Positions 12,441 through 28,331 are shown, counted from the stretch's first letter. The stretch is 28,331 nt of DNA from Promethearchaeota archaeon (GCA_016933055.1 JAFGBS010000030.1:1-28331); one strand, 5' to 3'. Notes: a model not told the origin generated them from the letters alone. Numbers and translations are program-made.

Positions 12441-14321
12441 ATGGTTTCACCACGTAAATTCCACCATTTCTCGAAGACTGCAAAATTTAATCTCGGAGTT
12501 TTCATCATCCTTATGGTTACGTTTTCCTCGTTACTGATCTATACCAACGCTATTTTCAATAAATTCCTGTATTTTATGGAGTTTAAGCCTGAAGATAATC
12601 CCCACCTCCTAAAATCAATTAATTATACCCGTCTTCATTTGCTAGTGGAAGGCAATCCTGTTGATCATAATGTATTGGGAGCGGAAATGAGGCAAGCACT
12701 CTATCACATGCCATTAGGATTTTTTGGTGTGCCTCAATTTGAAGATGGGTATTTTCCCGAGCATGGTGTTGCAGATCCCTTCTCATGGACACCTGATAAT
12801 TATGCTAGTCCCGGGTGGTGGAACAATTTATCCGACGTTCGAATGTATAGTCTAAACCATCTGGGTGACAGTCCGTGGCGATCCTCTCTATATTTACATG
12901 CACAATGTTTACGATGGGCGGTCTATAATAGAGAAGGAAATTCTGCGGGAGTTCAAGCTGCAGAACACCAAATTGCGCGAATTCTCGATGGATATTGGAT
13001 CCAAACTCGAGCTTCCGGCATTCCTGGTAATCTCATTCGATTTGCCCTTCCGAATAACACCTTTGGAAATAACGGAGAAGCACCGGACAATTTCAATTAT
13101 TATTACGGAAATATGGGTCCCGCAACCACGGTGGCTACTCAATGGGGAACCGTGGAAAATGTTGAGTACGATTTTTCCGACTGGGTGGTAGTGGGGGATA
13201 CATCCAGGGATCAAAATGTCGGTTTTTTATTCGGTATAGCGAGTATCATGAATTTTGTAGAAACTATTGAGTTACGAAAACGTGCTGGAGCTTTATTAGG
13301 TGAGGTGGTAGACAATCTGATTCGAAATGATTGGAAGGTGATTGAGCCCTTAGATGGAGATATTAATTCTCTTCGAACTAATGGAGCAGATATGGATGGA
13401 GGTCCGACCGCTAGTTGGGAGCTTCCTCCCGCATTTTTACGAGTTGCTATGGAAGTTAATCCATCAAAATATACTCGATTATACCAAGAAAGTTTAACGA
13501 GATTGAACTTCTTAATGATGCAGAATAACTACAATGGATATAAAAATGTCTGGCCATCTTTTTATCCCGTAAATCTCAACTGGATGGTGAGATTTTCTTG
13601 GTGGTATACCGATAGGAACTCTGGTATCAGTAAAACCTATTATGACTTGCTGGAGGATCATTACCAAGCAATAAAATGTTTGAAAAATGCATTCTTTCAA
13701 ACACTATACTTAGCTTTCGATCCTCAGAATCGAAATCCTGATTCTGCCGCTGCGAGCTTGTCCCACTATACTCATATTCTCTTGGAGATAAATGATTCAT
13801 TAGCCCGAATGGCTGATGATTATTGGAATGGATTTAATGTATATCAACAACCGGATTATTCGGAACTCGCATCATATTTCGAAGACAATGGGTTAGACTA
13901 CTCAAATGAAGCAGATCGATTGGAATTGCTCATGGATCCAGTTGCAGAACGATATTCCAACAATAAATTTCTAAAATTTTTGGACGATGCAGTAGGCTGG
14001 GGTGAATTAAAGGGGCACACTTTATGGTCACTGCCATTTGACTGGCGCACTAGAGAGGATTGGATCTGGCAGAGGTCTCCCTTTAATCTGCGTATTGCCA
14101 CTCCCCCCTCCTATGATATTTTACGTGAGGAATCATTAGCGGATTTCACCGCCATTTATTGGTGGGCACGGTACATGAATTGGATCGATGCCCCTAATAT
14201 TGCTCTTAATATCACACCGCAATTCGTAGCATCGAATGATGTAGCTCAAGTTTGGCAGGGACATGGTCGATTAAGTGAATTTTGTAATTCTACAAGCATC
14301 TTGGAGGGAATTCAGAAATGA
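12441..14321 (+). CDS. N-terminally anchored or exported uncharacterised protein, possibly a helical-barrel carbohydrate-active enzyme
   Basis: 626 aa. One N-terminal TM (LGVFIILMVTFSSLLIY). Rich in W/Y/N. Motifs GIPGNLIRF, GDTSRDQNVGFLFG, WIWQRSPF, DFTAIYWWARY. Confidence 0.7.
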   Translation: MVSPRKFHHFSKTAKFNLGVFIILMVTFSSLLIYTNAIFNKFLYFMEFKPEDNPHLLKSINYTRLHLLVEGNPVDHNVLGAEMRQALYHMPLGFFGVPQFEDGYFPEHGVADPFSWTPDNYASPGWWNNLSDVRMYSLNHLGDSPWRSSLYLHAQCLRWAVYNREGNSAGVQAAEHQIARILDGYWIQTRASGIPGNLIRFALPNNTFGNNGEAPDNFNYYYGNMGPATTVATQWGTVENVEYDFSDWVVVGDTSRDQNVGFLFGIASIMNFVETIELRKRAGALLGEVVDNLIRNDWKVIEPLDGDINSLRTNGADMDGGPTASWELPPAFLRVAMEVNPSKYTRLYQESLTRLNFLMMQNNYNGYKNVWPSFYPVNLNWMVRFSWWYTDRNSGISKTYYDLLEDHYQAIKCLKNAFFQTLYLAFDPQNRNPDSAAASLSHYTHILLEINDSLARMADDYWNGFNVYQQPDYSELASYFEDNGLDYSNEADRLELLMDPVAERYSNNKFLKFLDDAVGWGELKGHTLWSLPFDWRTREDWIWQRSPFNLRIATPPSYDILREESLADFTAIYWWARYMNWIDAPNIALNITPQFVASNDVAQVWQGHGRLSEFCNSTSILEGIQK

Positions 14322-16284: not shown

Positions 16285-17112
16285 ATGAAAATTAAAATCA
16301 ATAAGAAAAAGCAGAATTTGGATGTGAAGGGGTTTTTTAAATCTAAATATCAAAAAAGCCTGGATTTAGAAGATTTAATTGAAATTGGTAATTTGTATTA
16401 TGAAGAAGGAATTTATTATGAGGCTGCAAAATATTATGACCTTGTTTTAGATGAAAATCCAGACCTTATTCAGATTTGGAAGAAAATTGGAAATTGTTTT
16501 CTGAAAACTGGGGAATATAGTGAGGCAAATATGTGCTATACCATAGCGTATGAACCAGTTATTGATTTAAAGAATCATTATGAAGAAATGATGGAGCAGG
16601 AGGATTATAATGAGAATGAAGATGAAGAAGGATTGGTAAAAGAAGAAAGAGAGGAGGAGGGGGAGGAGGGAGCAGTAAAAGAAAATGAAGAATATTTCTT
16701 GAGTAAAAGTCTCTTGAAAAAACTGATTCATAGGCTGCGAAACCGATTTGCTACTACTACTAAAACACCCCTATCTTCTAAATTACCACTTGTTAATGTT
16801 TCACGTAGATCCTGGGAATATCTTGTGAATGGTTCCAATAATTCCTTATGGCCATTCCCCATAACATTGGCTTGTGATGCTAGAAGATATGTATGGTTCT
16901 GCACGAAATATGGGTGGCATCGTAAGAAAGAAAGGATTTTTGTTGACGATGAGGAGTATCCCGTCGTTTGGGACATTGTGCATTTGCTATTGAAACATAC
17001 ATCTAGAGGAGGACGTTTTCATATCACCGATTCCATGGTGTTTCTTGATCGAAAGAAATATTATGAAACAATTTGTCGTATTAAAATTATAGAAGGGAAA
17101 AATAATGTGTGA
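16285..17112 (+). CDS. TPR protein with a Glu-rich linker and an unassigned C-terminal domain
   Basis: Two TPRs (LIEIGNLYYEEGIYYEAAKYYDLVLDENP; IWKKIGNCFLKTGEYSEANMCY), acidic tract EEEREEEGEEG, then a ~110-aa alpha/beta segment. AGGTGT RBS before the ATG. Confidence 0.75.
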   Translation: MKIKINKKKQNLDVKGFFKSKYQKSLDLEDLIEIGNLYYEEGIYYEAAKYYDLVLDENPDLIQIWKKIGNCFLKTGEYSEANMCYTIAYEPVIDLKNHYEEMMEQEDYNENEDEEGLVKEEREEEGEEGAVKENEEYFLSKSLLKKLIHRLRNRFATTTKTPLSSKLPLVNVSRRSWEYLVNGSNNSLWPFPITLACDARRYVWFCTKYGWHRKKERIFVDDEEYPVVWDIVHLLLKHTSRGGRFHITDSMVFLDRKKYYETICRIKIIEGKNNV

Positions 17113-17254
17113 TTTGCTATAAAAAATATCCAGCATTTAGATGATTCCGATAATTCAATCCACTTAGCATTTAAGAGCGCGAGTTGAAAAATGCATTTAA
17201 ATTTGGGAGCCTTCTGTTTATGTTGATTTAGGTATGAATATAATCATAAATACC

Positions 17255-17570
17255 TTAGATTAGTGTTTTTACCAATGCATCTAATCTCTCTGCATTGTAG
17301 CATTCCACTTCACGTCCATCAAAGTGGTCAATTTCAAATTCAAAATTTTTGCTGAAAATGATGTACTTGTAGTTCATATCTCTTGCTTTTCGGTTATAGA
17401 GAATATGATCTTCATACCGAATTGCTTGTTTCATAAGTGCGTTTGGGTTTTGGGGTTTATTTGTCCATTTGCATATCCCCAATAATGCTTCATTCTGTTG
17501 GGGATCGAATGCTAGAATGTCGCATTCCTCCATCACTTGATCTATTTTTCCCCACCAACGTCCAATAAGT
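17255..17570 (-). pseudogene. C-terminal DUF234-like (PD-(D/E)XK-type) fragment of an archaeal ATPase-DUF234 protein
   Basis: IGRWWGKIDQVMEECDILAFDPQQNEALLGICKWTNKP matches the GRWW...EIDIVA...GECKW pattern. No upstream ATPase domain is present. Confidence 0.7.
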
Positions 17571-17579
17571 AAAACGACC

Positions 17580-17858
17580 ATGGATGCAATTTGCTGCCAC
17601 GTTAAGAACGAATTCCAAGAGAATATTGAAATTTGGTTCCCCAAAAGAGTCATTCATCCAATTTATGGTTTTGATTATGAGAAAGAACAGATTTTTTATA
17701 TTCAAGAATGGTTGGTGAAGAATCAGCAGAAAGATTTGGGGCGAAATAAAGAATTAAATAAGGAATATGTGACATCAAAAAAGAATGCAGAGCGTTTTTA
17801 GAAGGATTATGAAAAATATGGCGAATTCGCTTACATGATTATTAAAATGTATTCATGA
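17580..17858 (+). pseudogene. Possible gene fragment with an in-frame TAG (17799-17801)
   Basis: Protein-like IHPIYGFDYEKEQIFYIQEW...KKNAERF*KDYEKYGEFAYMIIKMYS reads across the stop. Family not recognised. Confidence 0.35.
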
Positions 17859-17929
17859 ATGGGTGTTAAATGAATCAAGTCAATAATGTTGATAGGACAA
17901 GTTTCTTACTTATGCTAAGAGGGTTTATC

Positions 17930-18118
17930 TTGTGTGAATTACTCGGATTGTGTTTTAATCGGCAAATTAATGCGAGAATCTAGTTTCACGCGTTGAAGAG
18001 ACGTGGAATTTATAATCCCCGTGGTTGGGGTTTAGCTTATCATCCAGATGAATCTGCTCAAATTTTGAATTGACCTTTCCAATATTCTTATTTCTCGAAA
18101 GGTCTAATATTGATCTAA
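17930..18118 (+). pseudogene. 5' remnant of a second class II glutamine amidotransferase (paralog of 24399..25193)
   Basis: TTG start after GAGGG gives MCELLGLCFNRQINARI*FHALKRRGIYNPRGWGLAYHPDESAQILN*PF. 24/47 aa are identical to the intact copy and 27 of the first 30 nt are identical. Stops at 17981-83 and 18071-73. Confidence 0.9.
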
Positions 18119-18131
18119 GGAGAATACTTCG

Positions 18132-21100
18132 ATGAGTTATCAATCTAATAGTTTCCGGGTATTTGTTAGTTCTACTTTCAAAGATATGGAAGCAGAGCGT
18201 AATTACCTTCAAAAATTTGTTTTTCCAAGGCTAAAACATATCTGTAAATCCTACGGATTTGAATTCCAAGCAGTAGATTTGCGCTGGGGAATTGATGAAG
18301 AAGCTTCTATAGACCAAAATGGAGTAAAAATTTGTTTGGACGAATTAAAGCGATGTCAAGAAGTATCTCCACGTCCAAATTTAATTGTACTACTCGGGGA
18401 ACGATATGGATGGACTCCTCCCCCCGCTGAAATTCCCGAAATAGAGTTCCAAAAATTATTTTCTTATATAAGAAGGTCTGACCGTAAACTGGTAGAATTT
18501 TGGTATAAATTGGATACAAATTCAATATTTAAAATTAATGAATCTACTCATTGTGGAACTTATAAACTAGCACCTCGCAGAGGGATTCATGCAAAATGGA
18601 AGGAATATACAGAATGGGAACCAGTTGAACGCCAATTACGAGAAATTCTTTATAATGCAGCTATAAAATCGGAGGTAAATGCAAAAAATTTACTCAAATA
18701 TTATTCATCAGCAACACATCAAGAAATAATATCAGGAGTTATTGAACCCGCAGATGCAAAAAATCATGTGCATTTTTTCATGAAAAACATATCAGGAGTA
18801 TCTCCGACCGAGAAATTGAAAGATTTTGTTGAAACAGATTCTACTAAGAAGGAGTATCTTGAACGTCTTAAAATGATACTAAGAAAAGACTTTTCTGATC
18901 ATGTCCATGAATATTCTGTTAACTCGGCAAACTCGGATGCTTTTAAACAGTATTTAGAGGAATTTGGTCGACATGTATTCGATGCTTTGTGGACCAATAT
19001 AAATATGCAAATCAACCGTTTTGTCAGAAAATCGGAACTTGAGCAGGAAAGTGAATCCCAGATGGCTTTTGCTCAGACCCGAACAAAAATATTTGTGGGG
19101 AGAAACGCTGTTTTAGAGAAAATTATGGATTACATTCATGATACCACAAATGATCCGTTAATTATAATGGGACCTTCCGGTTCGGGAAAATCAGCTTTAA
19201 TAGCAAAGCTAGTTCATGAAATACATAAATCAAATCCCGCTAGTATAGTTCTCCCCCGCTTTATTGGTACAACAGTAAAATCTTCCAATTCACTCACTTT
19301 GCTAACAGATTTATATCAAAATATTGTTAAAATGCCTAATATCTCTTTTAAAACCACAGAAACCATTACAGATAAAACATTTACAGATTATCCGAAATTT
19401 GCTCGTTATTTTACAGAACTGGTCAGTACGTGTGATATTGGAGATAAAGCGATTCTCTTGATAGACGCTATCGATCAGCTAAGATCGAATGATATGGGAA
19501 GAGACCTCCAATGGATCCCTCAAGTCTTAGGAAAAAATATAAAAATTGTAATCTCATGTGCTTTAGATGCAAAAGACTTGGTGGGAATATTAGATACTCG
19601 CTTCAAAACCAGAATCCTTCACATCCCCCCTCTTTCTATCCAAGAAGGAGATGAAATTCTGAAATTGCTACTGAAAGACACTTCACGAGCTTTAACATCC
19701 TCTCAATCAGACGAAATTCTAATGAAATTTAAGAAATTAGGAAACCCCCTATTCTTAAAAGTAGCTTTTGAAATATCACGTAGGTGGAACTCATTCGATC
19801 CCCCTGAATCAACCATTCTTCCGGATAATATTGAAGCTTTAGTGGAACAATATTTATCATCACTAATGATCCAGTATGATTCAGAATTTGTTAAACGCGT
19901 ATTGGGATATTTAGTCACATCTCGTTATGGATTAACAGAATCTGAGATAGTAGAAATTCTTAGTTTTGATTCTGAATATTTCACCAATTATTACCTCAAA
20001 AAAATTTTCCACCCTCTCCCCGAACCGAGACTTCCATGGATTGTGTGGTCTCGTTTTTTTGCAGTTATGGAACAATTTTTCACGCAAAGTGGAATCTTCA
20101 ATGTTACCACTTTTTCTTTATTTCACAGACAGTTTAAACAGATAATTACAACTCTATTCCTACCTGAAAAAACAAAAAAGCGTTTTCACCGCATACTTGC
20201 AGAATATTTTGCTCAAAAACCTCTGTATTATAAGGAGGGTGAGAAAAAAACTGTAAATTATCGAAAACTATCTGAACTTATTTATCACCTACGCGCTGCG
20301 GAAATGTTTCAAGAAATTGAATACTATTTGACTGATCTCGAATATATTGATGTAAATTGTGGAGCTGGATTAATCGATGCTCTATTACAAGATTTCTCAG
20401 AAGTTATGCAAGTAAACACTCATCAATGGAAGGATCCCTCCATTTTACAGGAAATATACGCGTTTTTACGTAACCAATCTCATATTATTCGAAAATTTCC
20501 CCAGTTATGTCTTCAACAAGCTGTAAATCAATCTGAATTCCAAAATTTAGCCAAAAATGCAGAAATCCAATTGCTTAACCCTGCACAAAAGCAACCGTTT
20601 ATTAAATTACTAAATAAACCACAAGAGAGAAATCCGCTAGTATTAACTTTCCAAGGGCACCACAGTCCCGTTAATGATTGTTGCTTTTCTCCAGATGGAT
20701 CCATAATTGCGTCCGTTTCAGCTGATAGTACTATTATATTGTGGAATTCAAAAACTGGTGCACGGATGAAAACATTATACGGACACTCCAAAGAAGTCAA
20801 TTCCTGTGATTTTACGCAGGACGGATCAAAGATTCTTTCAGGATCGAGTGATGGTACATTAAAACTTTGGGATGTTCAATCAGGAACTACGCTTAAAACC
20901 TACACATTTGATGGTATTCCAATTGAAGATAGTAGGCTATCCCGCGATGGATCTACAATTCTTGTAGCAAGTAACGAAGGGAGTATACGATTAGTGGATA
21001 CAAATTCAGGAAGCATTATTACGACGTTTAAAGGACATGGTAAAGCTGTGAAATGCTGCCGTTTTAGTCCCGATGAATCAATGATCTTATCTTCATCAGA

Positions 21101-22595
21101 TGATTATCTGCTTAAATTATGGGATGTTGAAAAATCTGAGGAAATTTTCACGCTAGAGGGTCATACAGGATGGATAAATACGTGTGCTTTTTCTCCGAAT
21201 GGTGAAACGGTAATTTCGGGATCCTATGATCAGTCATTGAGAGTATGGGATGTAAAAAGCAGCAAAGAATTGGCATCTTTTCGAACAGGTAGTTTTATGA
21301 ATTGGATAAATGCATGTGCATACTCCCCCGATGGCTCAGTTATCGCTTTTGGCTGCGGTTCGAGCATAATTATATGGAATCCGAAAACGAATGAACAATT
21401 AGCTAACATCTATAACGGTGATTATTACTCAATCACTTTCTCTCCTGATGGTTCTCAGTTGTTAACAGGATGTAGAGATAGCACTCTGAAATTGTGGGAT
21501 GTAAATACAATGATGGAAGTATACCTCTTGCATGGAACCCGGGATATTCTATCAGAGAAGATACTTGGATTCTCTCCAAATGGATCTATATTCATTACGG
21601 TGGAATCACAGTATTCCTTGAAACTTATGGATTCCGTAACAGACGCACAATACATTGTAAAACTCTGGGATTCTCATACAAAAAAAGAATTGAAATCTCT
21701 AAAAGGACATCTAAAAGATATCACTTGTTATGATTTTTCTCCCGATAGTACTCAATTGGTCACTGGTTCGATAGATCATACGTTAATCATATGGGATATT
21801 GCAAGCGGAACTGCACTACACGTACTGCGGGGACATACAACTTACCTAAAATTATGTAGCTATAGTTTAGATGGGCAAAATATCATCTCCCTTTCGAATG
21901 AAAACACGGTAAAAACTTGGGATGTAAAATCGGGTAAAGAAGTTAATAGTAAATCTAATCCCGTTAAAAGTTGTACTATGTGTAGTATCTCTCCAGATAA
22001 GACCAAGATTTTAGTGATCGGTTCATCACGCAATTTAAAATTGTGGAATTTGCTATCTGAAAATCCCCCAATTACCCTGGAAGGCTTTTACACGGATCCT
22101 ATGCATTATGCATTTGCTTTCTCCCCGGATAGCTTAAGTTTTATCACAAAAATAGGAAAAAATGAACTGGCGATATGGGATGCCCAAACTGGAGTGATGT
22201 TGCGATCATTTACTGCTCATTCAAGGAATATTTCTACATGTTTGTTCAATCCTAATGGTGATATCATAGTTACGGGTTCATTGGATAGAACAATAAAACT
22301 CTGGGATATTCATACGGGAGAAAATATTAAAACATTAACGGGTCATAGTAAGACGGTTGTAAATAGTATTTTTTCACTGGACGGCGACTTTATCATATCT
22401 GGATCAGATGATGAAACAATACGCATGTGGGATTTAGAAACCGGGAAAAATGTTGCGATATTTCCAGAAGCACGTTTTTTACGAGAAATGGCAATAAATA
22501 AAAATGGATTACTTATTGCTATTGACTCTACGGGACTTAAAATGATGGAATTAAGAAACTACGATAATAAACTCAAATCTCAAGCCAAATTCTGA
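18132..22595 (+). CDS. DUF4062-NACHT(STAND NTPase)-WD40 protein, TEP1/NWD1-like
   Basis: FRVFVSSTFKDMEAERNYL...AVDLRWGI...LLGERYGW (DUF4062) and SATHQEI. Walker A GPSGSGKS (19170-19193), Walker B ILLIDAIDQL, GNPLFLKV. About 14 WD40 repeats (GH...FSPDG...WD) from ~20655. AAGGAG RBS. Confidence 0.95.
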   Translation: MSYQSNSFRVFVSSTFKDMEAERNYLQKFVFPRLKHICKSYGFEFQAVDLRWGIDEEASIDQNGVKICLDELKRCQEVSPRPNLIVLLGERYGWTPPPAEIPEIEFQKLFSYIRRSDRKLVEFWYKLDTNSIFKINESTHCGTYKLAPRRGIHAKWKEYTEWEPVERQLREILYNAAIKSEVNAKNLLKYYSSATHQEIISGVIEPADAKNHVHFFMKNISGVSPTEKLKDFVETDSTKKEYLERLKMILRKDFSDHVHEYSVNSANSDAFKQYLEEFGRHVFDALWTNINMQINRFVRKSELEQESESQMAFAQTRTKIFVGRNAVLEKIMDYIHDTTNDPLIIMGPSGSGKSALIAKLVHEIHKSNPASIVLPRFIGTTVKSSNSLTLLTDLYQNIVKMPNISFKTTETITDKTFTDYPKFARYFTELVSTCDIGDKAILLIDAIDQLRSNDMGRDLQWIPQVLGKNIKIVISCALDAKDLVGILDTRFKTRILHIPPLSIQEGDEILKLLLKDTSRALTSSQSDEILMKFKKLGNPLFLKVAFEISRRWNSFDPPESTILPDNIEALVEQYLSSLMIQYDSEFVKRVLGYLVTSRYGLTESEIVEILSFDSEYFTNYYLKKIFHPLPEPRLPWIVWSRFFAVMEQFFTQSGIFNVTTFSLFHRQFKQIITTLFLPEKTKKRFHRILAEYFAQKPLYYKEGEKKTVNYRKLSELIYHLRAAEMFQEIEYYLTDLEYIDVNCGAGLIDALLQDFSEVMQVNTHQWKDPSILQEIYAFLRNQSHIIRKFPQLCLQQAVNQSEFQNLAKNAEIQLLNPAQKQPFIKLLNKPQERNPLVLTFQGHHSPVNDCCFSPDGSIIASVSADSTIILWNSKTGARMKTLYGHSKEVNSCDFTQDGSKILSGSSDGTLKLWDVQSGTTLKTYTFDGIPIEDSRLSRDGSTILVASNEGSIRLVDTNSGSIITTFKGHGKAVKCCRFSPDESMILSSSDDYLLKLWDVEKSEEIFTLEGHTGWINTCAFSPNGETVISGSYDQSLRVWDVKSSKELASFRTGSFMNWINACAYSPDGSVIAFGCGSSIIIWNPKTNEQLANIYNGDYYSITFSPDGSQLLTGCRDSTLKLWDVNTMMEVYLLHGTRDILSEKILGFSPNGSIFITVESQYSLKLMDSVTDAQYIVKLWDSHTKKELKSLKGHLKDITCYDFSPDSTQLVTGSIDHTLIIWDIASGTALHVLRGHTTYLKLCSYSLDGQNIISLSNENTVKTWDVKSGKEVNSKSNPVKSCTMCSISPDKTKILVIGSSRNLKLWNLLSENPPITLEGFYTDPMHYAFAFSPDSLSFITKIGKNELAIWDAQTGVMLRSFTAHSRNISTCLFNPNGDIIVTGSLDRTIKLWDIHTGENIKTLTGHSKTVVNSIFSLDGDFIISGSDDETIRMWDLETGKNVAIFPEARFLREMAINKNGLLIAIDSTGLKMMELRNYDNKLKSQAKF

Positions 22596-22647
22596 ACGGA
22601 ATGTGGTAATCGGCGCTCTGACCATTCGGTTTTGAGATCTTTTTTTC
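22596..22647 (+). terminator. Possible hairpin plus U-tract terminator after the NACHT gene
   Basis: Imperfect inverted repeat AACGGAATGTGGT / ACCATTCGGTT followed by T runs. Confidence 0.3.
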
Positions 22648-22667
22648 AAGCAAGTTAGTCAAATTTA

Positions 22668-22883
22668 GTGCATCTATTTCGGATTCAGGGAGTTTTCCCT
22701 CTCTTGATATATGCAAATAGCAAACAAAAAATCAAAAAAATTATTGAACGGTTATGTTTTCGATGCATTCGGGAAATATGTATTACTTTTCGGAAAGATG
22801 AAGCAGGAGATCCGATAGAATTCGATGCTTTAGACTATTCTCTATTAAAAGAAGAATGGCAAAAAAAAGAAAAATTTAGATAA
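22668..22883 (+). pseudogene. C-terminal fragment of a RimJ/RimL-type GNAT acetyltransferase
   Basis: HLFRIQG...NSK...KIIERLCFR...FRKDEAGDPIEFDALDYSLLKEEWQ resembles the LHRI...N.AS..LLERLGF...D...YSLLKEEW tail of that family. The N-terminal half is absent. Confidence 0.5.
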
Positions 22884-22984
22884 AAAAAGACCTGAGAATC
22901 CATTCATCCCCTTATTATCCCTTTTTTTCCATTATAAAGGGAAATCAATATGTAGTAATTTTATGATTGTCCACATTTAGAACA

Positions 22985-23329
22985 TCAAAAAAATGAGCCC
23001 GTATGTAATGACTTTTTGATCATTATGTAGGTTTTTTTATTGATATTCCGAATTTCATAAAGTAATTTATTTAGAATGTACAATTCCCTGCTCTCAATTA
23101 ATTCCTCTCTCCAAAGAAGTTGAAGAAATTCGATAAAAAATCTCAAATTTAAACCGTGCATTTTACCATATGGATATAATGGTCTATCCTCAGTCAATAT
23201 AATGGGATTGAGTCGCTTTTTTAATCCAAATATACTTGCATCTGCATTTGCATTTGATTTCTGTACTTTTATCAAAGATTTTACTTCATTATTGAATATA
23301 TCAGAGAAAAAAGAATATAAACAGAAAGA
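22985..23329 (-). pseudogene. N-terminally truncated PIN-domain (VapC/DUF3368-like) protein
   Basis: NADASIFGLKKRLNPIILTEDRPL...GLNLRFFIEFLQLLWREELIE matches the PIN C-terminal half. The frame is open back to 23329 with no good start codon. Confidence 0.45.
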
Positions 23330-23366
23330 TCAAAAACAAACATGGAAATAACAAAGTGAACTAATA

Positions 23367-23663
23367 ATGAATGAAACACAAGAGGAAGTTCAGAGGCAAA
23401 CCCCTTCATTTTTTGGTCTATTTCTCTGCGCATTATTTGGGTTTATCGGAATAATAATAGGTTTAATCCGACTTGCTAAAGGAAGAAAAAATTCAGGGAA
23501 CCGCATCATAATTTTATCTGCGATCGGGTTTGCTATTGTAGTCGCATTTGGGTCCGCAAGTGTAATTGTGCCTTATTTAGGACTTGTGGCACTTCTCCCC
23601 TTAATTGGAGTGGTAAACCATTTTTATAAGAAAATTAAAGATGGCACTTATCCATGGGATTAA
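23367..23663 (+). CDS. Small membrane protein (about 3 TM)
   Basis: 98 aa with hydrophobic spans FFGLFLCALFGFIGIIIGLI and IIILSAIGFAIVVAFG...VNHF. Confidence 0.7.
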   Translation: MNETQEEVQRQTPSFFGLFLCALFGFIGIIIGLIRLAKGRKNSGNRIIILSAIGFAIVVAFGSASVIVPYLGLVALLPLIGVVNHFYKKIKDGTYPWD

Positions 23664-24046
23664 ATCAGCGATAAACGCTCCGAGAGCAGATACCAATATG
23701 GAAATTTAAGACTTATAAGTCTAAGAACCAATCTCTACAGACTTAAAAGAACGAATAATGAGCATAGTGGAGAATTTCTAAAATCAGAACCAGTGTTCTA
23801 AAAATTCCTTTAGAGAATAGAGCGGAATATCCACAAAAAGTGTCTTTATTATAGGGTTTCATCTCAGAAAGAGTGCACTTAAAATATGGATAAGATTATT
23901 TTTCTTGCTATATGTACTATCAGTGGCGGAAATATTTATTCCTCCAAATCCTGAGCAATATTTTCTAATTCAACCTTTTTTTCATGGAAATTAGTTATAC
24001 TAATTGCATTTATTTCTGATTCAATGAGTTTTCCCCCTCTTGATAA

Positions 24047-24358
24047 TTGAATCATGGGTTTGTATCTCGAAATTGCAAACAATATTTAGTCCAAGGAGGA
24101 CTCTTACTTGCTAATAATTCTCATTTGGATGCCGGGATAGCACATTTGGACTCTGACTTTGATTTAATTGGAGTTATAAACTATCGTACAAACAAGTTCT
24201 ATTTCTCTGAGAAAGACTTGGATCATTATTTCATCCCGAAAAATCCCAAGATAAACCATACGCTGGAGCATTTGCTTCGACTGCAGCGAGGTGTAAATTA
24301 CACAAAAACTGCGTCTCATTATTTGTTTAGAAAAACTGGTGTATTTCAAGAAAATTAA
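24047..24358 (+). pseudogene. C-terminal half of an uncharacterised SAM-methyltransferase-like protein
   Basis: GFVSRNCKQYLVQGGLLLANNSHLDAG...YFIPK...RGVNYTKTASHYLFRK recalls the LKxGG-type motif of class I methyltransferase-like proteins. No N-terminal half is seen upstream. The family call is from memory only. Confidence 0.35.
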
Positions 24359-24398
24359 ATATATCAAAAGATGCAATACTTGAGTGAGAGTGAAAAAT

Positions 24399-25193
24399 GT
24401 GTGTGAATTATTAGGATTGTGTTTTAATAAAGAAGTGAATACGAGAATTTCGTTTAATGAATTTAAATTACATAGTGAGGGAAATCCAGATGGGTGGGGA
24501 TTAGGATTTTATCCTGATAGAGCAGTAAGAATCTTTAAAGAACCTATTACTGCGAAAACAAGCAGATTAGTGGAGTTTATCCGGGAATATGAGGAAATTC
24601 GTTCCAAAATTTTTATCTCGCACATCCGATTAACAAGCGGAACTAAGGTGTGTTATCGAAATACTCACCCCTTTTGCAGAGAATTAGGTGGAAAACAGTA
24701 TGTGTTCGCTCATAATGGAACTTTAGGTTGGTACAAAAAGAAAGATGGTTTGGAATTAGGAGATTATAGAACTGTGGGAGAAACTGATTCAGAATGGGCG
24801 TTCTGCTGGTTAATGGAGCAATTGAAAAATCGTTTCGGAACAGAAAAGGATTCGACCAAAAAATGGTCTCATGATGATTTTGACTGGTTACATGAGAAAT
24901 TTCTATATATTAACGAATTTGGAAATTTCAATTGTTTAATGAGTGAAGGGGTGCACCTGTTTTCCTATTATGACAAGAGAGGATATAATTCTCTATTATA
25001 TTTAATCCGAAAGAAGCCATTCGGGTCTATTAGGTTGCTAGATGATGATTTCCAAATTAATTTAAGAGATGAGAAAGACCCGGACGAACAAGGGGTGATC
25101 ATTGCAACCAGGCCGTTGACGGATGAAAATTGGGTGAGTTTCAAGCCTGGTCAGCTGATTGTAGTTGAAAATGGGAGAATTTTATTCAATTAA
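24399..25193 (+). CDS. yafJ: Class II glutamine amidotransferase (Ntn hydrolase, YafJ/GATase_4 family)
   Basis: Start reassigned to the GTG at 24399 so that Cys is residue 2 (MCELLG). Motifs NPDGWGLGFY, ISHIR, NTHPF, FAHNGTL, GETDSEWAF, IIATRPLTDENW. Confidence 0.92.
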   Translation: MCELLGLCFNKEVNTRISFNEFKLHSEGNPDGWGLGFYPDRAVRIFKEPITAKTSRLVEFIREYEEIRSKIFISHIRLTSGTKVCYRNTHPFCRELGGKQYVFAHNGTLGWYKKKDGLELGDYRTVGETDSEWAFCWLMEQLKNRFGTEKDSTKKWSHDDFDWLHEKFLYINEFGNFNCLMSEGVHLFSYYDKRGYNSLLYLIRKKPFGSIRLLDDDFQINLRDEKDPDEQGVIIATRPLTDENWVSFKPGQLIVVENGRILFN

Positions 25194-25250
25194 AATAAAG
25201 TAAAAATTGAAGAAAGAAAAATGTATTTAATTTAGAAAAGAGGATTAAAA

Positions 25251-25448
25251 ATGAGTGAACAAATGGAAAATAAAAACGCAATCTTGTATTCAACCGAAGA
25301 ACATAGAGATCTCGTCTTTAGGAAAATGAAACAAATAGAGTCCAGATGGATAAAGATTGTTGAGGATTTTTTTTCAAAAGGAGAAAAATTGGATGTTCTA
25401 ATAATAGGTTGGATAGACAAGCATGTTCCTATCCTAACGGATAGATAA
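25251..25448 (+). CDS. Small hypothetical protein
   Basis: 65-aa ORF with a GAGGA RBS before the ATG, co-oriented behind the amidotransferase. Confidence 0.5.
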   Translation: MSEQMENKNAILYSTEEHRDLVFRKMKQIESRWIKIVEDFFSKGEKLDVLIIGWIDKHVPILTDR

Positions 25449-25666
25449 ACTTGTTTATGTTCACATCAGTAGCATACGGACCAAGGTCCTAGGACCACGG
25501 ACCGACCCTTTTATATGTGTTCGGCATGTTTATGTGTTTGTTAGAACGTGTTCTAACGAACACGTAGAATTTGTAAAGATTTTTGCTTTCGGGATTCGGT
25601 GGAGTTTTACGATAGTTTTCACTTATTGAGATTACTATTTAACAGAAAGGGTGGAATAGATGTTGA

Positions 25667-27991: not shown

Positions 27992-28331
27992 GTGAAATTA
28001 ACGCATCACAAAAAGATTAAATTAATCGTGTTGAGCATTGTAATTTTATTTTTCCTTGTACCTATGATGTTTGCAAGACAAGAATATAGACTTGTTCCCA
28101 AATCAAGCGATGGGGGGTATGTAGAACCTGGCTATATTATTTCTGATTTTAACGATCAAGTGGACAATATCAGAAAAGGTATTGAAAAGGATGGGATTTT
28201 CTATGCTTTGGATGGAATTAGTTTCATCCATAATTATAACAAAATCACTAAAATTCCAATCTATCATCCCGAAATTTTAATTTTGGCACAGGAATTTCGA
28301 AAAACACATCAAGATTATATAGATTGTATAA
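27992..28331 (+). CDS. 5' part of an exported or membrane-anchored protein (runs off the right edge)
   Basis: The frame from the GTG at 27992 is open to the window end: MKLTHHKKIKLIVLSIVILFFLVPMMFARQEYRLVPKSSDGGYVEPG.... The exact start is uncertain. Confidence 0.65.
   Translation, partial: MKLTHHKKIKLIVLSIVILFFLVPMMFARQEYRLVPKSSDGGYVEPGYIISDFNDQVDNIRKGIEKDGIFYALDGISFIHNYNKITKIPIYHPEILILAQEFRKTHQDYIDCI

Follow-up and report, generated by a model that had tools for sequence, protein, structure and literature searches.

An intact NIR (DUF4062)-NACHT-double WD40 gene in a Loki-type Asgard archaeon, a candidate NLR-like sensor gene of the prokaryotic DUF4062-NACHT-repeat family

DUF4062, also named NIR or TeTIR, is a TIR-like domain. 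Four preprints of 2026 describe it as a TIR-like NADase, both in antiphage defence and within human TEP1. Prokaryotic NLR-like NIR/TeTIR-NACHT-WD40/TPR proteins are the subject of Le Mouellic et al. 2026 (bioRxiv 10.64898/2026.09.04.749371), of Osinski et al. 2026 (10.64898/2026.05.01.722283) and of a preprint on TeTIR (10.64898/2026.09.21.753143). In these 2026 preprints, DUF4062/NIR serves as the NADase effector of Avs2, Swarozyc, Vulcan and Vesta, and all characterised NIR systems yield ADPR and nicotinamide. The catalytic residues in print are E1008 of TEP1 and E108 of PsAvs2. TIR-family enzymes often produce cADPR-type signals, which the NIR paper names as an option for NIR too. About 20% of NIR genes adjoin known defence genes. 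It has also been reported that isolated TeTIR domains from Arthrobacter, Bacillus cereus and Methanobacterium have no NADase activity in vitro and that NWD1, NWD2 and NPHP3 are weak or inactive in NADase assays (2026 preprints). The DUF4062-NACHT-repeat family and its enzymology are already in print, and the protein described here adds a further member.

The window, that is, the whole stretch of DNA that was analysed, is 28,331 nucleotides long and comes from a Loki-type Asgard genome. Its GTDB family also contains a genome that NCBI lists as a Lokiarchaeota/Promethearchaeota MAG, which bears out the Asgard host proposed in an earlier note on this DNA. A single uninterrupted ORF of 1487 aa spans exactly 18132-22595 on the plus strand, as seen from the ORF list and the translation. 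The features of the gene and of its flanks are the following.

17255..17653, minus strand: 3' remnant of an ATPase_2/DUF234-type ATPase gene (DUF234 Pfam match, comparison with genome G001)
17930..18082, plus strand: pseudogene remnant of a class-II glutamine amidotransferase N-terminus, residues 6-56, with two in-frame stops (tblastn, search of the own genome, direct repeat D3)
18090..18131, plus strand: upstream 42 nt shared together with the gene, putative promoter and ribosome-binding region (DNA homology with locus L088)
18132..22595, plus strand: intact NIR(DUF4062)-NACHT-WH-helical-2xWD40 gene, 1487 aa, P0001 (ORF list, translation, Pfam, dN/dS 0.15)
18132..19031, plus strand: N-terminal NIR/TeTIR (DUF4062) TIR-like domain, aa 1-300 (Pfam, 11gz_A match, AlphaFold2, TIR folds)
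18414..18707, plus strand: 98-aa insertion, aa 95-192, between the RYGW and SxTxxE motifs (alignment, model)
18723..18725, plus strand: codon of E198, the predicted catalytic glutamate, in the motif S193-A-T195-H-Q-E198 (column invariant in 85 rows)
19089..19691, plus strand: NACHT-type STAND NTPase, aa ~320-520 (NACHT, NPHP3_N and nSTAND1 above cut-offs; G352, K353 and D445 invariant)
19167-19193, plus strand: Walker A, within NACHT
19452-19475, plus strand: Walker B, within NACHT
19884..20567, plus strand: winged-helix region (aa ~585-630) and Apaf-1-like helical domain (aa 686-812) (Pfam, collinearity with TEP1)
20598..21500, plus strand: first seven-bladed WD40 propeller, aa ~823-1123 (AlphaFold2, 29 strands; WD40 and TEP1-propeller Pfam models)
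21588..22556, plus strand: second seven-bladed WD40 propeller, aa ~1153-1475 (AlphaFold2, 30 strands)
22573..24082, minus strand: gene-poor stretch after the NLR gene, with two fragments of an 81-aa gene (direct repeat D2, 82% identity)

The earlier note had described an intact DUF4062-NACHT-double WD40 protein in an effector-STAND-repeat layout, with preserved Walker motifs, a helical and winged-helix region and about 14 WD40 repeats, and all of these elements are recovered in the translation, in an HMM search against Pfam or in the AlphaFold2 model. DUF4062 (PF13271) covers aa 9-97 with E 3e-12 and 46.9 bits (cut-off 24.7); a scan of the genome gives 48.8 bits. Over aa ~313-511, NACHT scores 28.7 bits (cut-off 26.7), NPHP3_N 32.2 (24.8) and nSTAND1 31.8 (27.1). 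Walker A reads G347-PSGSGK353-S354 and Walker B ILLID445AID448; with the GxxxxGK[ST] and hhhhD motifs and the profile match, the protein carries a STAND NTPase of the NACHT clade. The NTPase is followed by an HTH_NWD1-type winged helix at aa ~585-630, a weak match of 20 bits that lies under the cut-off, and by an APAF1_C helical domain at aa 686-812 (36 bits, cut-off 22.8), and this region is collinear with TEP1. WD40 repeats run from aa ~830 to the C-terminus. The AlphaFold2 model of aa 815-1487 (m147eb18ae2e5, pLDDT 87.7) has 29 + 30 strands, which form two seven-bladed propellers connected by a short helix and a linker.

The same succession of STAND ATPase, winged helix, helical domain (APAF1_C) and two WD40 propellers is found in Apaf-1, and Apaf-1 (3sfz) also gives the best superposition for the modelled double propeller, at E 3e-42 and a query-normalised TM-score of 0.70. 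The effector of Apaf-1 is a CARD, its ATPase is of NB-ARC type and its propellers have 7 + 8 blades, whereas here these parts are NIR, NACHT and 7+7 blades. PADLOC and NCBIfam searches of the protein assigned no specific family, and no PADLOC Avs or NLR-like model matches, the PADLOC returns being HEAT-ARM_XIII on the repeats and weak P-loop matches; the PADLOC-DB used dates from 2023 and is older than the NIR systems.

The TIR-like character of the N-terminal domain is supported at several levels. The NIR region matches the TIR-like domain of human TEP1 (11gz_A) directly in sequence, with E 1.2e-13. Its AlphaFold2 model has a pLDDT of 90.7, and its best PDB matches in VIA-align are TIR domains, namely TIRAP (Z 11.2, rmsd 3.6, 141 aligned), RPS4 (Z 10.9) and MyD88 (Z 10.7), with MilB (Z 8.8) and SARM1 (Z 8.6) among further scores. 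The model has a TIR-like (flavodoxin-like) fold. A Foldseek search of the PDB with a 320-aa NIR model gave no match at E<=0.001; the library searched ends in April 2026 and may predate the TEP1 domain entry 11gz.

The residues of the predicted active site are strictly preserved. The glutamate of the SxTxxE motif, E198, occupies a column that shows no variation among the 85 aligned rows, vertebrate TEP1 sequences and 17 eukaryotic TEP1-like sequences among them; its equivalence to human E1008 is based on the alignment and on residue arithmetic on 11gz and the 895-1117 construct. Across the same 85 homologues, TEP1 included, S13-S14-T15, D18, E22-R23, R51-W52-G53, R91-Y92-G93, K353, G352 and D445 are also invariant, and W94, S193 and T195 are nearly so. 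The Walker motifs that had been called intact are conserved at their key lysine and aspartate. With TIR folds at Z 11.2 and the NADase activity of the domain family in the 2026 preprints, the earlier proposal of DUF4062 as a TIR-like, NAD-processing effector has gained support. The insert between the RYGW and SxTxxE motifs is 98 aa long here, against 23 aa in 17 eukaryotic and 9 prokaryotic TEP1-like proteins. In the remaining aligned proteins its median is 89 aa, and its length marks a "long-insert" subfamily. In the AlphaFold2 model, it is predicted to form helices and two beta-hairpins.

Hundreds of bacterial and archaeal homologues share the domain order, the active-site motifs and the NACHT clade, at 33-44% identity over 830 aa. 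Among these prokaryotic NIR/TeTIR-NACHT-WD40/TPR proteins, the protein with its 98-aa insert falls, in the NIR-NACHT tree, in a clade with only Asgard archaea among its named members, and this clade is nested within the large, mostly bacterial long-insert subfamily. The clusters listed by the ESM Atlas are all bacterial. The earlier note had set out a recent bacterial origin with no eukaryotic affinity as one outcome that would count against it. The tree bears this out in part, as the subfamily is mostly bacterial and TEP1 affinity is absent; yet the gene is not a recent bacterial import, the named members of its clade being all Asgard.

In eukaryotes, the vault/telomerase protein TEP1 (clade 16 in the NACHT classification of Kibby et al.) has a collinear NIR-NACHT-WH-helical-WD40 module. 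Residues 953-1685 of Branchiostoma TEP1 align at 24% identity (E 2e-56), collinear through residue 800; the catalytic Glu is shared, and the Pfam models of the TEP1 propeller match. In contrast to TEP1, the protein lacks the TROVE/VWA N-terminal extension (Pfam finds neither TROVE nor VWA, and NIR begins at residue 7) and has the long insert. Eukaryotic TEP1-like proteins cluster with a Methanoperedens/Blastocatellia clade, the nearest prokaryotic kin of TEP1, and the branch between the protein and the TEP1 clade has 100% support and a length of 1.3 substitutions. The grouping of the Asgard clade with the TEP1 clade is rejected (p-AU 8.6e-5) in an AU test on a 35-row subset of the 85-row alignment under LG+G4, the tested group having been named after the tree was seen. 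With prokaryotic homologues the NIR-NACHT module reaches 400-740 bits, with eukaryotic TEP1-like proteins only 91-236 bits. A special Asgard-to-eukaryote link of this gene is not supported by these scores, by the long branch or by the AU rejection.

The absence of the extension, the fully supported branch and the AU result also speak against a TEP1 orthologue. The nearest prokaryotic relatives of TEP1 are not these Asgard genes, a negative result in agreement with the literature, which derives TEP1 from other prokaryotes. By itself, the gene does not bear on the origin of eukaryotic immunity; it adds an Asgard-specific archaeal clade to the DUF4062/NIR NADase-NLR family. It is improbable, although conceivable, that the long-insert subfamily, with its Asgard clade, is the closest prokaryotic kin of animal and protist NWD1/NWD2-type proteins and not of TEP1, the present alignments being made without NWD proteins. 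If so, one eukaryotic NLR-like NADase branch would come from an Asgard gene and not from bacteria, an origin excluded for TEP1 only. In the "longer" and the TEP1-seeded searches, the eukaryotic returns are all of TEP1 type.

The gene is found in 4 of 400 genomes of the Asgard phylum (E<=1e-40) and in 1 of 13 genomes of the same family, a patchy distribution typical of an accessory gene. Compared with a 74%-identical orthologue, dN/dS is 0.15 overall and 0.14-0.15 in all three regions, at dS ~1.0, and the purifying selection that had been suspected from the intact reading frame is thus seen in every domain. The orthologue sits in an unrelated gene context (locus L088), and DNA homology between the two loci covers only 18090-22567, at 76.7% identity, with no match beyond. 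The gene changes place as a single-gene cassette.

The broken neighbours reported earlier are real in the immediate flanks. Upstream, what is left of the ATPase gene codes for its C-terminal ~103 aa; G001, which belongs to the same genus, has the gene intact, at 493 aa, and matches over 17256-17565 only, at 81% identity. The amidotransferase remnant (49 codons) is 49% identical in amino acids to the intact gene at 24384 (tblastn E 2e-16) and stops 8 nt before the cassette. Downstream, the fragments of the 81-aa gene lie at 22573-22716 and 23936-24082, and an intact copy is present on another contig of this genome (C12), inside a toxin-antitoxin-like cluster; the small ORFs of this gene-poor stretch have no Pfam matches. 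No integrase or other mobility gene is recognisable in the 6.3 kb around the gene. A search of genomes G001-G004 for an empty or syntenic site gave no collinear locus; G001 has DNA matches only to the ATPase remnant and the gene at 12441-14321. PADLOC returned no defence genes among the ten neighbours, which do not form a known defence island.

The protein is, on balance, most likely a single-chain NLR-like (STAND) sensor-effector, that is, a ligand-triggered, oligomerising, NAD+-depleting antiviral sensor. By analogy with Apaf-1, the Avs proteins and bacterial NACHT proteins, the two WD40 propellers would hold the NACHT ATPase in its off state and bind the trigger, for which a viral protein is the likeliest candidate. 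The NACHT modules, in ATP-bound form, would then oligomerise and gather the N-terminal TIR-like NIR domains, which would deplete NAD+, and the infected cell would be arrested or killed (abortive infection). PsAvs2-NIR and other antiviral STAND Avs proteins are the proposed working model, although Avs proteins belong to another STAND ATPase clade and use TPR-like sensors for terminase or portal proteins, and the protein has no PADLOC Avs match. Domain order, folds, intact catalytic and nucleotide-binding residues, purifying selection, the patchy distribution and the movement as a single-gene cassette are direct observations, whereas trigger, oligomerisation, NADase activity and antiviral role are inferred; the activity is extrapolated because no assayed homologue known to us has the 98-aa insert. 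The lack of known defence genes among ten neighbours, the lack of a specific PADLOC match, the inactivity of the three isolated prokaryotic TeTIR domains and the weak or absent activity of NWD1, NWD2 and NPHP3 speak against the antiviral NADase reading.

It is clearly less probable that the protein is a non-immune STAND switch, such as a regulator of stress, of development or of self/non-self cell death, or a scaffold; within this reading, NIR may be weakly active or a mere interaction module, a role also suggested for NWD1, NWD2 and NPHP3. The weak or absent activity of isolated prokaryotic TeTIR domains, NWD2 and NPHP3 and the absence of a defence island among the ten neighbours fit such a role, and the same parts occur in conflict systems of the Kaur et al. 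type in multicellular bacteria (per the Kibby et al. 2022 preprint). However, the catalytic Glu and the whole set of active-site motifs are strictly kept under purifying selection, and the ~1% prevalence and the hopping between contexts better fit an accessory defence gene.

An unlikely variant keeps the architecture, but NIR would make a nucleotide signal, as in Thoeris or plant TIR systems, for a separately encoded effector. The cADPR-type products common in the TIR family, and the option raised in the NIR paper, are in its favour; against it, none of the neighbours was recognised as a SLOG, RyR, SAVED or comparable partner, the gene moves alone, and ADPR and nicotinamide are the products of every characterised NIR system. 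Very improbable is a recently landed, idle passenger of a decaying mobile island, intact by chance, since the remnants on both sides and the position where an amidotransferase paralogue is split have to be set against a stop-free 4.4-kb ORF, low dN/dS relative to an orthologue in another context, a GC content of 0.358 (0.349 for the window) and identical DNA in two more metagenomes from other studies. Two metatranscriptome runs of the source study contributed no match to the stretch, a result that has no bearing on expression.

The gene is a reasonable candidate for the study of NLR-type immunity in Asgard archaea and of the role of the 98-aa insert. Animal NWD1 and NWD2, compared by description, have on paper the same architecture (DUF4062-NACHT-WD40, no N-terminal extension), a resemblance that serves as a lead only, and the NWD2 TeTIR construct (residues 35-364) is close in length to the ~300-aa NIR region. 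Several long-insert prokaryotic homologues are labelled "NACHT domain- and WD repeat-containing protein" in IMG.

The gene at 18132-22595 on the forward strand is a single uninterrupted open reading frame of 1487 codons. The protein begins with DUF4062 (Pfam match at residues 9-97, 46.9 bits against a cut-off of 24.7), a domain now renamed NIR (Le Mouellic et al. 2026, 10.64898/2026.09.04.749371), and NACHT, NPHP3_N and nSTAND1 are each matched over their own Pfam cut-offs at about residues 313-511. A winged helix of the NWD1 type scores below the Pfam threshold, the Apaf-1 helical domain is matched at residues 686-812, and WD40 repeats, with TEP1 propeller models among the Pfam matches, run to the C-terminus. 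The intact frame and these profile matches bear out the DUF4062-NACHT-WD40 anatomy that an earlier note had read here. Modelling of residues 815-1487 with AlphaFold2 (pLDDT 87.7) gave 29 and 30 β-strands, predicted to form two seven-bladed propellers; between them the model places a short helix and a linker of low confidence. Among PDB entries, full-length Apaf-1 gives the best overall superposition (query-normalised TM-score 0.70; E 3e-42), and the predicted likeness to Apaf-1 lies in the arrangement of the double propeller.

The NIR region (residues 1-320) was aligned with 45 homologues and modelled with AlphaFold2, and the model is confident (pLDDT 90.7). Foldseek returned no matches for this model. 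In an exhaustive VIA-align search the predicted fold is placed nearest to TIR domains (Z of 11.2 for TIRAP, 10.9 for RPS4/RRS1, 10.7 for MyD88 and 8.6 for SARM1, with TIR-STING and TIR-SAVED also among the top matches), below which stand the CMP hydrolase MilB (Z 8.8) and a 2′-deoxyribosyltransferase (Z 8.1). The sole solved sequence relative is the TIR-like domain of human TEP1 (11gz_A, E 1.2e-13).

Motif conservation was read from an alignment of 85 rows that includes 17 eukaryotic TEP1-like proteins. Invariant or nearly so are SST (13-15), D18, ER (22-23), RWG (51-53) and RYG (91-93) in the NIR domain, together with S193, T195 and E198, and also the Walker A K353 and the Walker B D445. E198 belongs to the SxTxxE motif, which carries the reported catalytic Glu of TEP1 (E1008) and of PsAvs2 (E108). 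The insert between RYGW and SxTxxE distinguishes the window protein from TEP1: it has 98 residues in the former (median of the long-insert group, 89), whereas 23 are found in TEP1 and in TEP1-like prokaryotic proteins.

DUF4062 is covered by four 2026 preprints. Both in human TEP1 and in the defence system Swarozyc it has been shown to be an NADase of TIR-like type (Osinski et al. 2026, 10.64898/2026.05.01.722283). Depletion of NAD+ has been shown for an Avs2 protein as well as for Vulcan and Vesta; NIR occurs in ~8.7% of prokaryotic genomes, often within NLR-like proteins (Le Mouellic et al. 2026, 10.64898/2026.09.04.749371), and the family, also named TeTIR, comprises TEP1/NWD1/NWD2/TTC41/NPHP3 plus several bacteria and archaea (10.64898/2026.09.21.753143). 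Bacterial TEP1-like proteins are mentioned in the Evangelion preprint. Leão et al. (2024) listed NLR among Asgard defence systems and noted a possible Asgard-eukaryote NACHT link that needs more work. With these preprints and that study, both this type of protein and the chemistry it probably performs have already been published; what is added here is an Asgard-only clade within a known family.

The best-supported explanation, which we consider probable, is a NADase of the NLR/Avs/Apaf-1 type that would be triggered by a ligand, oligomerise and act in abortive infection. Its structural and conservation steps are observed in the protein itself. Trigger, assembly, enzymatic activity and antiviral role are suggested by analogy with characterised relatives, none of which has the insert of this subfamily. 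A STAND switch without an immune role, its NIR weak or non-catalytic, seems unlikely; it may be set beside the inactivity in vitro of three isolated prokaryotic TeTIR domains (10.64898/2026.09.21.753143) on one side and the conserved E198 on the other. NIR genes are enriched beside defence genes (Le Mouellic et al. 2026, 10.64898/2026.09.04.749371), and neither an integrase nor a known defence gene can be recognised near the window gene. Less probable still is a signal-generating NIR whose effector is unlinked.

The distribution of the NIR-NACHT module is sparse. At E<=1e-40, 4 of 400 genomes in the phylum carry it, as does 1 of 13 others in the family; the same-genus genome G001 (76% complete) gave no match at that threshold, and the window's own genome holds a single DUF4062 gene. 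The orthologue encoding the metagenome protein P0002 has quite different neighbours (cold-shock genes, radical SAM, rhamnosidase), and the two loci share similar DNA (76.7%) only over 18090-22567, that is, the gene and 42 nt upstream. GC content agrees with that of the host (0.358 against 0.349). Between the two genes dN/dS is 0.14-0.15, alike in the NIR, NACHT and WD40 parts, with dS near 1; WD40 is the most diverged part (69.5% amino acid identity). This upholds the purifying selection proposed earlier, and an idle passenger gene is very improbable. Two hot-spring metagenomes of 2017, from studies other than that of the sediment sample which probably yielded the window, contain short contigs that match the gene and both flanks (16500-25500) exactly, and none of these pieces spans the left junction by 31 nt.

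The host genome has 3.76 Mb in 36 contigs and is 91% complete. It belongs to the same GTDB family as G002, whose homologue MBD3351849.1 is assigned to 'Candidatus Lokiarchaeota archaeon', in agreement with the Asgard host supposed before. With the N-terminal 830 residues as query, 12,971 cluster representatives were matched at E<=0.001 and 3,533 at E<=1e-30, as well as 526 or more loci in species-representative genomes of prokaryotes from many phyla; the best matches share 33-44% identity, save P0002 (78%). The module scores 400-740 bits against the long-insert group, 170-260 against a second prokaryotic group and 91-236 against eukaryotic TEP1-like proteins.

In the tree (IQ-TREE, 85 rows, 769 columns, LG+C20 PMSF, SH-aLRT), the window protein falls in an 11-row clade (SH-aLRT 100) whose named members are two Heimdallarchaeota proteins and one Lokiarchaeota protein. 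This clade is nested inside a 53-row clade (100) that is all prokaryotic and mostly bacterial, with a stem length of 1.3. Among added homologues from the Asgard phylum, the G248 protein falls in the Asgard clade, whereas the NIR-NACHT genes L083 (G263:C24:197252-199360) and L003 (G002:C379:359-2857) group elsewhere with a Methanobrevibacter protein (SH-aLRT 98), which gives at least two family lineages in Asgard genomes. The family has thus been acquired by Asgard archaea, or has diversified in them, on two or more occasions.

The eukaryotic proteins form an 18-row clade (99), sister (88) to a Methanoperedens/Blastocatellia/Acidobacteriota clade. A search seeded with Branchiostoma TEP1 found 34-42% identity in the NIR-NACHT module to P0288 and P0293 (Methanoperedens) and P0315, P0316 and P0334 (Blastocatellia); these short-insert proteins make up the clade sister to every eukaryotic TEP1-like protein sampled, a position that makes them better candidates for the source of TEP1 than the Asgard genes. 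Constraining the Asgard clade to group with the eukaryotes costs 385 log-likelihood units (p-AU 8.6e-5, on a 35-row subset under LG+G4, the group having been picked after the tree was seen). The earlier interpretation is borne out in part, and affinity of the protein to eukaryotic TEP1 was not demonstrated. Domain length and database names raise a slim possibility that the long-insert subfamily, and perhaps the Asgard clade, is the relative of NWD1/NWD2.

The gene is flanked by remnants of other genes:

17255-17653, minus strand: remnant of an ATPase_2/DUF234-type ATPase, C-terminal ~103 residues kept; the 493-aa gene is intact in G001
17930-18082: pseudogene of a class-II glutamine amidotransferase N-terminus, 49 codons, residues 6-56, two stops
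22573-22716 and 23936-24082, minus strand: two truncated copies of an 81-aa gene, downstream of the NLR gene

The ATPase remnant is 81% identical in nucleotides (17256-17565) to the G001 gene (L087 406-1887), and both flanks differ. The amidotransferase remnant stops 8 nt upstream of the DNA shared with the P0002 locus. Its 3′ complement, residues 56-268, is found on a different contig of this genome (C13:30694-31332; L096 1495-2121, minus strand), behind an unrelated membrane-protein gene, and is 76% identical to the intact gene 24384-25193. This apparently split second paralogue reflects either an old rearrangement whose break holds the shared DNA, or a problem in the assembly. The 81-aa gene is intact on the genome's own contig C12 (L094 1375-1620), among PIN/AbrB-like and nucleotidyltransferase/RHH-like pairs, a cluster that looks like a toxin-antitoxin island. 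The final 123 bases of the window (28209-28331) also match C12, with 90% identity. An unannotated 626-aa gene at 12441-14321, without a Pfam family, has two tandem copies in G001 (L085/L086, G001:C154:2-3307) at 71-73% nucleotide identity.
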